Shown here: positions 33,001 through 39,000 of the stretch, in pieces | Numbering within the stretch: position 1 is the first letter of the stretch | How the letters are laid out: every line of letters starts with the position of its first letter | Origin: Candidatus Anstonellales archaeon | GTDB lineage: Archaea > Micrarchaeota > Micrarchaeia > Anstonellales > J096 | NCBI GenBank assembly: GCA_038890745.1 | Contig: JAWAFD010000002.1 | Coordinates: 128,001 to 192,000 of the forward strand | Direction of reading: 5' to 3' | Length of the DNA stretch: 64,000 nucleotides | Made by a program: the position numbers

Positions 33001-36000
33001 CAGTTGATGTTGTGCTGAAAATACTTTGGGCGCAAGGAGAGGTAATGGAAGCGAGAAAGGATGTTTTTGCATTGGTGGAATGATGATAAAGGACAGCATA
33101 CATGGTTTTATAGAGATCAGCGATGAGGAAGAAAAAATAATAGACGTGCCGGAATTCCAGAGATTAAGGCATGTGAGGCAGCTCGCGCTGGCGCATCTTG
33201 TATACCCGGGCGCAAACCACACGCGGTTTGAGCATTCGCTCGGAACGATGCATATCGCAGGAAAGATTGCGGAAAACCTTGGTTTAGATGTGAGAAAGGC
33301 TCGTCTCCTTGGGCTCCTGCATGATCTAGGCCATGTTGCTTTCTCGCACGAGTCCGAGCGGGTTCTTTTGAAATACCTTGGCTCGCATGAGGAGATTGGA
33401 AGAAAAATAATAGAAAGCAGCGAGATTGGCGAGGTTGTTTTTTCAAACTACTCAAAAAAAGAATTTTTCTCGGGGCCAGAGATGGAAATAATAGACCATG
33501 ATCTAGGTGCTGATAGGTTGGATTATCTTAACAGGGACTCATACTATACTGGTGTAGCATACGGTGTTATAGACGAGGGAAGGATAGTTTCCATGCTTTC
33601 TCTTGATAAAAAAAACAAAAAAATTTATTTGGAGAGGGGAGGGCTTGAGGCAGCGGAATCCATGCTGATAGCAAGGTTCATGATGTTTTTCACTGTGTAT
33701 TTTCACAAAACAGTTAGGATTGCTTCCGCGATGCTCCAGAGAGCAATAGAGCAGTCCATCTCATCCGGCGAGGTTGAGCCGAAAGATTTTATGTACTGTT
33801 TTGATGATGAGATGCTTTTCCGGCTATCGCAAAAAAACGAGTTTGCTAAGCGCATCCTCCAAAGGAAGCTGTATAAACTTGCCTATGAACTTCCATTTTC
33901 AGAAGAAAACATAAAGTTCGCGGAGCAATTTGAATCTAAAACTATAATCATAGATCTCCCCTACTCAGTTTATAAACTAAAAGGATTTGATGTAGATTTC
34001 GAAGGTAAGAAAAAGAAGATTGATGAGTGTTCGGTTCTTGTAAAAGACCTGAAAGAGGCCGAGAAATCAAAGCTCAAAATTTTTATTATATGTGAAGAAA
34101 GCAAAAGAAAAAAGGTTGCGGAAGAAATCGAGAAAGCTCTTAGAAAATAATATACAAAATAAATACTTATCCGATAATATAGTGCGCAACCTGTACAATA
34201 ACTATGAGCGCTACTGTAAAAATAACAACCATCTGCGGAGTAATGTCTATTCCGCCGGTCCTCGAAGTCGGGCTTGTACCTATTATTCCCGCCATTGTTG
34301 TTGGCATCTGGATGCTCTGTCTCTTCCAGCTCATGCTTTCATTTTGGAGCAAAAACATTAAAAAGGTTAGCGGGCAAAAATTCTTTATGGATGTTGAGCT
34401 TGTTTTTTTAAAAGATCCTTCCAGATTGGGGCTAAAAAACCCAGTTCTTATCACAGGTTTTCCGGGTGCAGGACTTGTTGGAAGCATAGCAACAACCTTC
34501 CTTACTATGGGAAATGGGTTTGAGCTTATCGGGTATGGAAAAAGCGAAGGGTTTGCCCCTATCGCGGCTATACACGAATACAGGCCTTTACCTCCATTGA
34601 GAATCCTTGCATCAAAACAGCTAAACGCGGTTGTTCTTCTTTCAGAAATGACTATTCCGGTTTCCCTTAATTCAGCGATTGCAGAGAGAATAATGGAGCT
34701 CGCTGATAGAATAAAAGCAGGAATGGTGGTTTCGCTCGGTGGAATAACCTTAGGCGAGAAAGAGGATGTTGTGTATTTCATCGCCTCAACACCATCCATG
34801 GCAAGGCTTGCCCTTTCAAAAAAAGTTGGTGAGCCGATAAAGGAAGGCGCAACAACCGGTGTAACCGGTGTTCTTCTTTACTCCTCCTTTATAAAGGAGG
34901 TCGATACGATTGCGCTTCTTGCAGAGGCAAACCCAGACCTTAGCGATCCTAAAGCAAGCAGCAATGTTCTTAAGGCCCTTCAAAAGCTTCTTGGTGTGGA
35001 GATAGACACACGGGCACTTGATAAAGAGGCTAAAGAGATTGCAGAAGCGCTAAAAGAAAAGATTGTGAAATCCAAGGTCCCGGTAAAATCTTCAATGTAC
35101 GGATAGGGTAGATTTTTAATCTGTTTTGTTTTCTAATTAAATTTGTTTACTCGCAGGGGTCGCCAAGCCCGGTCAAAGGCGCACGGTTGAGGGCCGTGTC
35201 TCTTAGTGGGTTCGTGGGTTCAAAAGCCCAGGGGGGCTTTAACTCTTTGTCATCCCCCCTGATGCGGTGAAACAAGTGCGACCCAAAAGTTTAGGAGGGT
35301 TGGGTCGCACCGAAGCCCTCCGGGTTGTTTCACCGCATCACGCTTCCACCCCCTATCTGTTTAGGATGTTTTGGAGGGTGGTTTGGCTGAAAATCCCACC
35401 CCCTGCATTAGACTAGGGGGTACTATTGCTTATCGCAGACCCCCTTACTCTACTACCCCCTTTCTTTTTCTAACCTCCTTGCTCCTAATAAGATAGGGGG
35501 TGGAAGAGGCAGGGGGTTTTAGAAATGCTTAAGTACCCCCTGGTCTCCCTTACTCTACTACCCCCCGAACCCAGGGGGGAAGTGTCCCCCCTAGGTTTGA
35601 GGCTCCTCCGTAACCCCCCTCATTTTTGCTCGTATAAGATAGGGGGGTAGAAGCGTGAGGGGGGAATAAGAATATGCTTAAGTCCCCCCTTGGCTCCTGA
35701 TAAGATAGGGGGTGGAAGAGGCAGGGGGTCTAAGAAATAGTTTAAGTACCCCCTGGTCTCATGCAAATTTAAAAATCCTTTATACCATATTTTTTTGGTG
35801 GTTTGATGAAAATAGTTTTTGAGATAAGCAAGGAAAGGTTTAAGGATGCGAAGAAAATATTAGAGGAAAACCCATATGCCGAGGATAGTTTTGCGAAAGC
35901 CGGATATATCCTAAAGGAAGGAAAAGCACTTGGCGAAGATGAGAATTATTATGTTTACATTGATGCGAGCGAGGATTTCGTGGAGAAAGCAAAGGAAAAG

Positions 36001-39000
36001 CTAAAGGGTGTTGCGAAGCCAGCGGATAATAAAAAAGCAGAGAGAATAATAAAAAAGGTTGAGGATGAACAGAATTCAGCGGTGAGCGGATTCGGCTCCC
36101 TTTTCGGGTAATCGTATGGATGGTGTGGAAAAAGAAAACAAAAAAATAGCGAGCCGAGGTATTCCATCCGAACTATCTTTCTACCTTCCTCCATACAACA
36201 GCCCTGAGCTCAGAAAGTTTGAGGATGAAAACGAAGCTCCTACCCGTAACTTATGGCATCTTGATGAGATTGTTAATTTTATTTTTCCAAAAAAATACCA
36301 GCAGACATATAACGAGGTCGCGCTTAAATTTCTCGAGCTGCTTGCAAGTAAGGTTGAGGTTGAGGGAAAGGATATCTCAGAATTTTTGAGGCAGAACAGC
36401 ATTTCAAAAGCAACATTCTACAATCGAGTTTTTCCAAAACTTAGAAAGTCAGGTTTGATAAAAGTTAGAAGGGAGACGATAACTGCAATAGAGAGCAAAA
36501 GGAAATACCGGCCTATGCATGTTTCACTCAGCAAAACATTCGGAAATTATCTTAATAAAATAGGTGAGAGCTGGCTCGCAATAGTGGATGATGCAAGAAC
36601 AAGAAAAAAATAGGAGTAAGATAAATACTAACTATAATTATTCAAAATCAAAAATTTTTTCCCTTTCCTCTTCTTTCTCCCTTATGCTTTTCGCAATCCT
36701 TTTCACTTTCCTTTCTGCATTTTCCTTAGCTGCCTTCAAGCCCTTTGTTTTCTCCTTCTCCCTTAGCTTCGCTGCGAGCTGTTTACTTTCTTTTATCAGC
36801 TCCCTTATGCGTGCCTTTGATGCGGCTATTCTTTCATCAATGTCCTGCTCAACCATCGTTGCCTGCTCCATCTCTGTTTCAAGCTTTTCAGCCATCCTGT
36901 CCAGCTCTTCAAGATATTTCTGTAGATACTCAACTTCTGCGGCTTTTTTCACTTTCAGCATATCTGCCTCAGCACTTTTTATACTTGCCTCTATATCGCC
37001 CATCTTTGTTTCATAATCTTTTATATAATCATGTATAACCTTCTCAACATTTTTAAGCTTCTCAAGGTCTGCAACGAGCGATCCGACCTCCATCATCCTT
37101 TTGTCAATAACAACCTTTGCCCCTTCTATCTTTTCGCTTAGGACATACCTTATCTCATTCAATTTTACAAGAAGCTCATTTGCAGCATCCATCTCCATCA
37201 GTATTTGCGCTTCCCGCTCTTTAAGAGCCTCCAGGCTTTTTTCAAGTTCTTTTTGTTTGTCCTCTATTTTTTTCGTTTTCTTCTCCAAATCCAGAACAAT
37301 ATCCATCTGGCTTTCAAGTTCCTCTTTGGCTGCCTTAAGGTCTTTTTCAAGCGCCATCTCTACCTCCTTTATCTCATTTTTTATTTTAGTTATCTCTGCT
37401 TCTATCATCTTTACAACTGCCTTCCCCTCCTTCTTTATTCCTACAATCGCTTTTACATAAGCATCAGCTTCGCTCACCTTTTCTGGTATTGAGATGAGCT
37501 TTTCTTTGAGCGATATTATCTCCTCCTCTATTGCCATTACTTTATCTGATATGTTCTCATAAAGCGCTTCTGCTTCCTTCTGACTTTTCAGGAGCCTTGT
37601 TCGGTATATCCCCTCCTTTTCTTCTTTAAGTTTTGCAATCTCAGTTCTAAGTTTTTCAATTTCTTTGAGATAGACATCGAGCTCCTCCCTCAGAGCTTTT
37701 ATTTCCTTTTCTTCTTCAGTAGGCTCCCTCTCTACCTTTTCCTCCTCAATTTTTTCCTCCGCCTTTTCCTCCTCCACAACCTCTGGTTCAGTTGGCTCGG
37801 TTGGTGGTGCTGGCACAACAATTTTTTCTGGTTCTATTTTTGGAACAACTATCCTAACCGGTTCGATCCTTTCTACTTTCTTTTCCTCCTCTATTTTTTC
37901 TTCCTCGACTTTCTCAGCTGGCTTTGTTATTCCTTTGGCGATTTCCTCCTTTGGAACAACAATCTTTTCCTTTTTCTCTTCCATCTCAGCCATTTCAGGT
38001 TTTTCTTCAACCCTTTCCTCTGCTGTTTCAAGAAGCCATACCACATACACTTTTGTAAGTTTGTACTCGAGCTTCACAAATCCCTCTTCCTCAAGTACAT
38101 GCACCCATTTTTTCAGAGTTCTTTTATCCACGCCGGCTTCTGCTGCAAGCTCTTCCATCTCAACCCTTTTTTTCTTTGAAAGTATATTTACTATTTTATC
38201 CATTTCTGTACTTATAAGCGCATCATCAGATGGCAAATTTATCACCTTCTTTCACAACTATTTTGAAAGTTCCGGTGAGCTTCCTGCTCGCCCTTTTCAG
38301 TGCCTCTTTTATGAGCGGAATGTTCTCTTTGTAAGAGTACACGGTCATTATCGGCTGGCCTTTCTTAACTTTCGCAGCTTTATCCACAGGCCTTCCAAAA
38401 GAGTTTCTCATTCCCTGCTGAATTCTGTCAGCTCCTGCGCCCGCAACCATTTTGTTCTCTCTTATTATATGATGCGGGAAAACCCTTACTCTGAAGAAAT
38501 ACCTCTCCGGGATTTTTTTCTCAAGATACCCATTCGAGCTTTTCCTTGCGGCTTCGAGTGCGTTATCCCTATGGTAATACTCTTGCTCTGCTACGAGGTC
38601 TACCTGTACGTTGAAGTCATTCTGCCTTTTTCCCATCACAAAAGTGTGAATATCCTGGTGCGGAATGGCCTTTATGAAATTTTTCTTTTTTACTTTACTA
38701 TGCCTTGTCCATGGCACTTTATCTGGATCCCGTATTGTTCTTGCCGGTCTTATTCCCATACTAGCACCTTTTTATCCATCGCCTTCCTTCTTTATTTTGT
38801 ATCAATATAATATTTAAACCTTACTCTGTTTCGCAGATAACAAATCCCTCAGATGTTTTCTTTATCGTAATGTTCTCTCCTTCAGCAAACGCGTTCTTTT
38901 CCATCACAACTATTCCCTTTACTGGCCTACATTCTTCTATTACAACTGCGTTCTCAAAATCAAATATACTGAAACCTTTTGATGATGCGTTGTAAACACA

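Follow-up and report, generated by a model that had tools for sequence, protein, structure and literature searches.

An archaeal protein family ending in a ribosomal stalk-type tail as a candidate partner of translation factors

A 64,000-nucleotide stretch of the genome of a Candidatus Anstonellales archaeon (hereafter the window) carries a gene for a small protein whose extreme C-terminus resembles the tail of the archaeal ribosomal stalk protein aP1. Both archaeal and eukaryotic ribosomes use the stalk peptide as a common grip to capture their GTPases and ABCE1. We judge, with a probability of roughly 0.6, that the protein described here is a partner from outside the ribosome that occupies, on a translation factor, the groove which receives the stalk. 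Nearly all genomes of a streamlined phylum encode a member of its family, as do several other archaeal groups, which suggests that the known inventory of archaeal translation lacks a component, be it a regulator, a chaperone of factors or an additional arm of the ribosome. A protein that probably grips factors in this manner would represent an undescribed way to help or to brake protein synthesis.

The features of the locus are collected in Table 1. The gene is genuine: its reading frame begins with ATG and ends with codons for SGFGSLFG immediately before the stop. The promoter-like elements were read by eye; archaeal promoters fall outside the coverage of the sigma-70 promoter scan.

Table 1. 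Features of the stalk-tail locus, in window coordinates
Feature	Coordinates	Strand	Basis or remark
TATA-like A/T boxes (35768-35775 and 35779-35784) and GGTGG ahead of the ATG	35768..35802	+	By-eye sequence reading
Stalk-tail protein gene (P0001), 101 aa	35806..36111	+	ORF call and family searches
Predicted ferredoxin-like domain, residues 1-73	35806..36024	+	AlphaFold2 model, conservation and fold searches
Predicted long helix, residues 75-99	36028..36102	+	AlphaFold2 model and conservation
Stalk-type tail, residues 92-101	36079..36108	+	Conservation and alignment to aP1
Winged-helix-like protein, 165 aa	36116..36613	+	Starts 4 nt past the stop of the stalk-tail gene

The tail is the best-preserved part of the protein. 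Among 122 family sequences, G95, G97 and F100 are the sole columns conserved at 90% or more and are the top three by information content; G95 and F100 are each retained in 119 sequences, and position 99 is I or L in 111. One of two tail registers is present in 70/70 Micrarchaeota copies, 140/150 representatives and 102/103 distant homologs. A preliminary description of this DNA had reported that most of the top-scoring members end in the tail pattern, and we reproduced this result for 133 of the best 150 representatives. The less common register, G-hydrophobic-[SA]-[LM]-F, is one residue shorter and is seen in 10 of 220 sequences (3/70 plus 7/150, from overlapping sets). Extra residues past the Phe are tolerated, much as in aP1; 20 of 70 members carry two or more.

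The same description held the ending to be nearly unique in the genome, and the count bears this out: the pattern G[FLMIV][GSA]x[LIMFV]F followed by zero to two residues ends only four of 4379 ORFs of at least 50 aa, namely the stalk-tail gene, aP1 and two short ORFs (72 and 52 aa). However, the six-letter motif also matches at 25 internal sites within 273,063 residues, equivalent to about 0.27 expected per 1000 C-termini. Taken by itself it is not beyond chance, and a single protein per genome could carry it at its end fortuitously. What does exceed chance is the conservation of the motif at the end of a family whose mean column identity is 33%. The chance rate is consistent with a coincidental likeness, wherein the glycine-rich end would be a structural or oligomer element (a PII-like trimer contact, for example) or a motif for some unrelated partner, and the protein would have a different housekeeping task. 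The near-invariant Gly residues at positions -5 and -3, which suggest tight packing, would suit such an element. Nevertheless, we consider coincidence unlikely, given that over 13 positions the family shares with aP1 its acidic run, its Ala and its G-hydrophobic-x-x-hydrophobic-F-G spacing, and that the likeness appears in both known registers.

Comparison with aP1 suggests a function for the tail. The aP1 encoded by this genome (contig C2, 299226-299531, minus strand) ends in AAAGLASLFG, and residues E98-G108 of Pyrococcus aP1 are EALAGLSALFG, in which factor binding is lost upon any of the substitutions G102S, L103S, L106S and F107S (PMC5887453, PMC4267659, PMC6125642). Residues G95, F96, L99 and F100 of the protein from the window align residue for residue with these four positions. 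Deletion of the terminal G108 is reported to leave ABCE1 activation unaffected (PMC6125642), and free aP1 and its peptide are described as binding factors without the ribosome (PMC6125642, PMC4267659, PMC5887453). Alignment of the family profile to the genome's own aP1 is confined to the last 15 columns. The NCBIfam archaeal L10 models weakly match four family members (E 0.0008-0.0099), with alignments that end at the last or next-to-last model position. Thus, the earlier proposal of a soluble stalk-tail mimic that acts on translation factors gains support with regard to engagement of the pocket, since the residues essential in aP1 are the best-kept positions here and the L10 models match.

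A small ferredoxin-like domain, a long helix and a tail had been proposed previously, and the AlphaFold2 model (mean pLDDT 92) agrees, predicting a beta-alpha-beta-beta-alpha-beta domain followed by a helix at residues 75-99. Residues 75-90 are predicted to be helical with pLDDT above 90 and constant length, and the flexible Ala/Pro/Glu/Lys hinge that precedes the tail in aP1 is absent. The spacing from position 75 to 95 is 20 residues in 115/122 sequences, such that the helix length is constant. Within the domain, the best-kept positions are F5, L19, R/K31, Y34, K/R37, G43 and Y49, and the loop at 20-28 can hold inserts as long as about 55 residues, a number of which contain CxxC pairs. The pLDDT drops to 61 over residues 91-100, and a tail modelled with such low confidence argues against a structural or oligomer element.

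Fold searches with the model single out no family, and the predicted domain appears to adopt a generic ferredoxin-like fold. The top match is the C-terminal domain of YigZ/IMPACT (2cve), with a Z score of 7.7 and an rmsd of 1.9 Å over 60 residues, and SBDS domain III and domains of LepA and EF-G reach Z 6.6-6.8. No match reaches Z 8 or a Foldseek E value of 0.001, and designed ferredoxin folds score alike. A sequence search of solved structures returned weak matches only, the best being a TetR-like protein (E 0.003). The domain had been called PII/ACT-like, but its likeness to PII, a nucleotide-binding trimer with T-, B- and C-loops, appears to be that of a generic ferredoxin fold. Foldseek ranks PII proteins first (best E 0.033), and the family profile aligns weakly with a PII sequence over positions 27-103 (E 0.33), both of which would fit a PII-like trimer contact, but the structural matches to PII, with Z scores of up to 7.0, have an rmsd of about 5 Å. 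Pfam PII matches none of the 122 members at E<=0.01.

The claim that the family is universal in the phylum holds nearly in full, with a single full-length match in each of 119 of 121 Micrarchaeota genomes (a tally that takes in the unpublished genome G029), and the family is single-copy as had been stated; genome G039 carries an additional weak and broken second match. However, the family is not restricted to the phylum. It extends to Aenigmatarchaeota, Thermoplasmata and MAGs labelled Methanomassiliicoccales or Methanosarcinales, and this range is a lower bound given that organism names accompany a minority of the matches. Our profile search found 249 representatives at E<=1e-3 and 86 at E<=1e-10. 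Some members have two domains in tandem and keep the tail solely at the very end. No relative was found in the viral contigs and phage records searched, and the ESM Atlas returned only unnamed clusters. As noted previously, the family has no name in Pfam, nor has it one in NCBIfam.

Gene associations differ among lineages. In families f7 and f8, 30 of 31 loci have the gene placed after that of ribosomal protein eS8 in the same orientation, and in 27 of them the two lie within about 30 nt of each other. Elsewhere the neighbours vary and are mostly unrelated to translation, including genes for a winged-helix protein, a cytidylyltransferase-like protein and the histone deacetylase family. The winged-helix-like gene lies downstream in 34 of 86 Micrarchaeota loci (a few loci represent one genome counted twice); its product is present in 50 of 121 Micrarchaeota genomes and in 0 of 60 from families f7 and f8, and is accordingly a frequent neighbour in part of the phylum and no obligatory partner. 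Contigs from RNA runs of three studies cover the homolog in one eS8-linked genome. In one sample, a contig spans eS8, the homolog and most of pyrB, while the gene before eS8 is not covered; uncovered parts prove nothing in such data, and we regard this as a weak hint. The high codon-adaptation rank reported earlier was reproduced (31 of 960 genes) but carries no information on expression, because 42 ribosomal and translation reference genes have a median rank of 390 under leave-one-out scoring; for this reason codon adaptation was rejected as an expression proxy. By a composition-corrected measure, the gene ranks 194 of 960. An origin-associated role, an idea that arose from repeats upstream, was dropped, as the sole Cdc6 match lies on another contig.

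The linkage to eS8 bears on where the protein might act. An alternative to our preferred reading is an extra arm tethered to the ribosome, wherein the domain docks at the stalk base or on the small subunit and the helix offers a tail that replaces one lost from aP0, thereby stimulating translation rather than competing. The hinge and tail of aP0 are missing in 51/51 Micrarchaeota genomes fetched, and in this genome the alignment of aP0 to the L10 models stops at positions 281-282 of 336-339; in Pyrococcus, aP0 is reported to have the tail (PMC7768734). The fixed length of the helix is ruler-like, and SBDS domain III, LepA and EF-G are among the fold neighbours, but their Z scores lie below 8 and are tied with those of unrelated ferredoxin folds. 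The aP1 tail is intact in 51/51 Micrarchaeota genomes, so tails are not scarce, and the domain is near neutral, unlike rRNA binders, which are mostly basic. The protein had been described as acidic, which is true only to a slight degree: its net charge is -2, with family medians of -3 to -7. We therefore regard the tethered arm as doubtful, an estimate that concerns placement, given that this alternative shares the binding step with the reading we favour. Regardless, the terms 'free' and 'factor buffer' used previously are not established; the eS8 coupling in two families and the tail-less aP0 are compatible with a tethered arm too.

The tail also departs from that of aP1 in the same genomes. 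Position -3 is Gly in 95% of family tails versus Ala in 96% of aP1 tails, position -1 is Ile in 78% versus Leu in 100%, and position -4 differs as well. When ORF ends were scored with a matrix built from 51 aP1 tails, the stalk-tail protein ranked third of 4379 with a score of 10.1. An unrelated kinase scored higher (20.4), and no more than 29 of 70 family tails exceeded 10.1. The near-invariant Gly97, where these genomes' aP1 has Ala, suggests a partner range narrower than the four factors of the stalk. The departures would also be compatible with a stalk-like decoy or docking peptide that serves another stalk client in place of the four factors, such as a synthetase, or a stalk-homing toxin or viral protein. 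Known clients of this kind include ribosome-inactivating proteins (PMC6162817) and an atypical archaeal SerRS (PMC10817482). We judge this to be very unlikely, given that the gene is single-copy, near-universal and set in housekeeping surroundings, unlike defence genes, and that a decoy should track the aP1 tail of its host; no co-variation of the two tails was seen over 50 genomes, in which the aP1 tail is almost invariant.

A proteasome gate-opening tail of the HbYX type, as in PAN or PbaB, is scarcely credible: the hydrophobic-aromatic-X ending and a PAC2-family gene 700 nt upstream in the window speak for it, but the HbYX rule calls for Tyr as the next-to-last residue of the chain, an ending found in 0/70, 1/150, 0/93 and 0/103 sequences (1 of 416 entries in four overlapping sets), the residues past the Phe run counter to it, and the listing of the 40 commonest neighbour clusters does not include PAC2.

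We propose, therefore, that the groove-filling partner is a stand-alone carrier of the factor-catching peptide of the stalk, in which the ferredoxin-like domain would hold a rigid helix of fixed length. The helix end, G95-F96-x-x-L99-F100, would insert into the hydrophobic groove used by aP1 on at least one translation factor. Our first guess for this factor is aEF2 (C2:85753-87960 in this genome), because aP1 depends on G102 to bind it. The other candidates are aEF1A (C1:255258-256526), aIF5B (C1:12692-14440) and ABCE1 (C3:10847-12562). While bound, the protein would keep the stalk out of the groove and may act as an off-stalk holder of the factor, whether as a chaperone, a store or a brake, and the domain could provide partner choice, self-association or a control input. 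Several points weigh against this reading, namely the likeness of ten residues that forms its base, the chance rate of the motif, the divergence from aP1, the lack of a hinge, the variable neighbours outside families f7 and f8 and the failure of the codon-adaptation argument.

In a bolder version, which we deem quite unlikely, the protein would be the first cellular stalk decoy and a general translation brake, capping the stalk grooves of the factors while a PII/ACT-like domain senses a metabolite or growth state and sets the supply of tails. The basis for comparison is provided by the 4E-binding proteins, and the decoy might, with equally low probability, be their archaeal counterpart in logic, with elongation and recycling as its targets and with retention even by genomes smaller than 1 Mb.

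Among known systems, the closest likeness is to archaeal aP1 (TIGR03685, PF00428) and aP0/uL10, with which the family shares the acidic run and an A-x-x-G-hydrophobic-x-x-hydrophobic-F-G C-terminus that matches the four binding residues. In contrast to aP1, it lacks the all-helical N-terminal dimerization domain by which P1/P2 proteins bind aP0, carrying in the model an alpha/beta domain with a beta-sheet and a rigid helix in place of the flexible hinge, and its gene lies outside the uL1-uL10-P1 operon. A PF00428 search of this genome listed aP1 and one broken match, the stalk-tail locus not being among them. The rRNA-binding L10 domain and the aP1-binding helices of aP0/uL10 are also absent: the sole PF00466 match in the genome lies at C2:300095-300379, and the L10 matches of the family are weak and terminate in the tail. 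Separately, the absence of a tail from Micrarchaeota aP0 is an observation that concerns the evolution of the stalk.

The YigZ/IMPACT C-terminal domain, SBDS domain III, EF-G, LepA and PII share the topology of the model; profile comparison revealed no homology of the family to aEF2 domains III and V. The elongation factor-binding protein aEF1-beta (PF00736) is likewise small with a ferredoxin-like fold, but it has no tail and is separately present in 58 of 61 genomes. It is not among the 50 matches listed by either fold search, an absence that does not in itself speak against a relationship. An hhalign comparison with one aEF1-beta sequence gave 14%, and a 30-sequence aEF1-beta profile gave a probability of 7.6% over 22 columns, with a score of 17.6 (best of 60 block-shuffled controls, 14.5).

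The hibernation factors Sri, Dri and HibA are also non-ribosomal proteins that act on translation, and Micrarchaeota and Aenigmatarchaeota appear in the figure on their distribution (PMC13454478). These factors carry tandem CBS domains and block ribosome sites, whereas the present family has a predicted ferredoxin-like architecture of 101 residues and no CBS match among 122 members at E<=0.01; the word 'stalk' is absent from the main text of that report. Our literature search found no natural non-ribosomal protein described with the stalk peptide and no paper on this family, and what would be novel is the role proposed for it. New observations are the tail-less aP0, the linkage to eS8 in two families and the recurrence of the shorter, eukaryote-like tail register. 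The tail of eukaryotic P1/P2 is given as GFGLFD (PMC4267659), and a minority of family members share this register, often ending in FD, whereas most members have the longer archaeal register and the body of the protein is unrelated to that of P1/P2.

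The 101-residue ORF with a stalk-like end that the preliminary description had reported in this window was recovered, its product terminating in SGFGSLFG; the ribosomal stalk protein aP1 of the same genome ends in AAAGLASLFG. Among the 4379 ORFs of at least 50 amino acids in this genome, four conform to the end pattern G[FLMIV][GSA]x[LIMFV]F plus at most two residues, namely the stalk-tail protein gene, aP1 and two short ORFs. Given that approximately 0.27 matches are expected by chance per 1000 C-termini, judging from the rate inside long ORFs, the bare motif alone is weak evidence. 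A scoring matrix built on 51 Micrarchaeota aP1 tails and applied to the same 4379 ORFs ranked the stalk-tail protein third (score 10.1 versus a background mean of -10.5, s.d. 4.7), with aP1 and an unrelated kinase ahead of it. That its likeness to the stalk is a coincidental structural motif is, in our judgement, unlikely. The high codon adaptation previously cited was reproduced (rank 31 of 960) but is uninformative, since ribosomal and translation genes have a median rank of only 390.

An AlphaFold2 model based on 122 sequences is confident (mean pLDDT 92) and predicts a ferredoxin-like domain (residues 1-73) followed by a helix (residues 75-99), with low confidence past residue 90. The closest structure by Foldseek is PII (E 0.033), the YigZ/IMPACT C-terminal domain scores Z 7.7, and SBDS domain III, domains of LepA and EF-G, and designed proteins score Z 6.5-6.8; from these searches, the modelled fold appears to be only a generic ferredoxin-like arrangement. 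The best-conserved part of the protein is its tail. Only the columns G95, G97 and F100 are conserved at 90% or more, mean column identity is 33%, and 20 residues separate position 75 from position 95 in 115 of 122 sequences. The tail is located at the C-terminus in 70/70 Micrarchaeota genome copies, 140/150 representatives and 102/103 distant homologs. The loop near residues 20-28 takes long insertions. Within a set of members comprising P0102, P0123, P0130, P0135, P0137, P0141, P0054 and the ORF at L210:3716-4291 (a fetched locus), some carry a zinc-ribbon-like CxxC...CxC insertion in the first loop and others a tandem domain duplication with a single terminal tail, and two-domain members keep the tail at the far end only.

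With a profile of 10 sequences, one full-length match apiece was obtained in 119 of 121 Micrarchaeota genomes (a count that includes the unpublished G029), which bears out the view that the gene is near-universal and single-copy in Micrarchaeota. Its supposed restriction to this phylum was wrong, as named members also occur in Aenigmatarchaeota, Thermoplasmata and one Methanomassiliicoccales MAG, and three MAG proteins bear the label Methanosarcinales. A search of 1.84 billion representatives yielded 249 matches at E<=1e-3, and a word-index search yielded 1092 proteins at E<=0.01, the best 120 of which were inspected. The viral collections searched gave no copy of the gene. No Pfam family matches more than one of 122 members at E<=0.01. 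In NCBIfam, archaeal L10 models alone match more than one (3/122, E 0.0008-0.0099), and these matches stop at the models' last positions, which is the site of the aP0 tail. Within the literature covered, which excludes most subscription journals, no non-ribosomal archaeal protein with a stalk-type tail is described, and the word 'stalk' is absent from the available part of a DPANN protein-family paper (PMC8204110). This archaeal family is real, widespread and unnamed, and what it conserves best is a tail of the stalk type carried on a foreign scaffold.

According to the available portions of published studies, Pyrococcus aP1 E98-G108 binds aEF2 in helical form, and binding is abolished by G102S, L103S, L106S and F107S (PMC5887453). 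Binding of aEF1A, on which the last 27 residues of aP1 form one long helix, also requires L103, L106 and F107 (PMC4267659), as does that of ABCE1, for which G108 can be deleted (PMC6125642, PMC6791870). These positions of aP1 (G102, L103, L106 and F107) are occupied in the stalk-tail protein by G95, F96, L99 and F100. However, 95% of family tails have Gly at position -3, where 96% of aP1 have Ala, position -1 is mostly Ile versus Leu in every aP1, and there is no co-variation with the same genome's aP1 in the 50 genomes giving both. The family tail does not replicate that of the host's aP1. Because of these differences, the alignments suggest a constraint related to but separate from that on aP1, perhaps reflecting a single favoured partner or another surface that packs on the helix.

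The analysis shows the fold, the conservation and the residue match, whereas binding, partner and effect are inferences; we give a probability of roughly 60% that the protein is a stand-alone partner occupying, on one translation factor or more, the groove used by the stalk. The genome encodes aEF1A, aEF2, aIF5B, ABCE1 and aEF1-beta. Given that free aP1 binds factors off the ribosome, a tail not tethered there would vie with the stalk for a factor's groove, and the protein would hold that factor as a chaperone, store or brake. This putative role is precise and cheap to test. As a separate observation, the aEF2 P-loop reads HVDHGK in this genome and HVHHGK in the consensus of 27 Micrarchaeota (alignment A6), the usual Asp being His in many Micrarchaeota.

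The rival readings partly overlap. The main alternative placement, as an additional arm anchored on the ribosome, draws on two observations. First, in 51/51 fetched Micrarchaeota genomes aP0/uL10 has neither a C-terminal hinge nor a factor-binding tail (in the present genome its alignment to L10 models stops at position ~282 of 336-339), and Pyrococcus aP0 is reported to carry a seventh such tail (PMC7768734, available part). Second, in the two Micrarchaeota families f7 and f8 the gene directly follows ribosomal eS8 in 30 of 31 fetched loci and mostly precedes pyrB; the exception begins 113 nt from the end of its contig. In one such genome, the homolog is covered by RNA-run contigs from three studies. 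In one sample, a contig starting 23 nt ahead of eS8 takes in eS8, the homolog and the greater part of pyrB but leaves the gene preceding eS8 uncovered; this is a weak hint of one transcript, since contigs cannot prove it. The near-neutral domain argues against attachment to the ribosome, and we consider this placement improbable. A decoy for another stalk client is more doubtful still, and a proteasome tail is very improbable.

As in this window, the stalk-tail gene is paired with a winged-helix-like gene at 34 of 86 loci from Micrarchaeota, a few genomes being counted twice. The latter's product occurs in 50 of 121 genomes, with ~55-67% identity across most of the window's order, and matches no Pfam or NCBIfam family at its cut-off. 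It was not found in any of 60 genomes of f7 and f8 and is therefore no obligatory partner. In 20 Micrarchaeota loci this pair faces a winged-helix/coiled-coil gene convergent with it. Among 80 loci from metagenomes, the stalk-tail gene most often neighbours a histone-deacetylase-family gene in convergent orientation (44) or, upstream, a cytidylyltransferase-like gene (30); an aIF5A-like, Nep1-like or ribosomal-protein gene (named by eye) adjoins it in single loci.

Features of the window and the aP0/uL10 gene of the same genome (G000, contig C2)
Feature	Position	Strand	Remarks
Secreted/membrane-anchored protein, 1499 aa	27735-32234	-	Beta-rich repeat units, 26-glycine run
tRNA-Leu(GAG), ~170-nt interruption in T-loop	35153-35407	+	ARAGORN after insert removal
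G/C-string direct and inverted repeat cluster	35325-35765		Overlaps tRNA insert in part
Stalk-tail protein gene	35806-36111	+	101-aa ORF, SGFGSLFG-stop
Winged-helix-like protein gene, 165 aa	36116-36613	+	4 nt after stalk-tail gene's end
N-terminal winged helix and long coiled coil, 535 aa	36638-38245	-	No family assigned
aP0/uL10, tail-less	G000:C2:299546-300424		Others: fetched loci L049-L079, L081-L100

The interrupted tRNA was missed by ARAGORN and Rfam in the window and called by ARAGORN as tRNA-Leu(gag) without the insert. Taken whole, the stretch folds well (z -4.95), and the insert is probably a long intron in a non-canonical position, its ends approximate. The repeat cluster contains three copies of a 53-nt family and 60-nt inverted arms spaced 17 nt, and to the eye looks like origin boxes or what is left of a small mobile element; the sole Cdc6 match lies on a contig other than the window's. 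The 1499-aa product is likely a cell-surface protein.

A CBS-type hibernation factor, as portrayed in the available part of its report (PMC13454478), was rejected as the identity of the stalk-tail protein. PII and aEF1-beta are no more than candidate ancestors, PII structures superposing with Z up to 7.0 at an rmsd of about 5 A and a profile-profile comparison with aEF1-beta giving 7.6% probability over 22 columns. The protein is a member of neither aP1 nor aP0, because the dimerisation domain and hinge of the former and the L10 domain of the latter are all missing. It would nevertheless work as aP1 does, through its tail, and the minority of family endings that are one residue shorter (3/70 genome copies, 7/150 representatives) share the register of eukaryotic GFGLFD.
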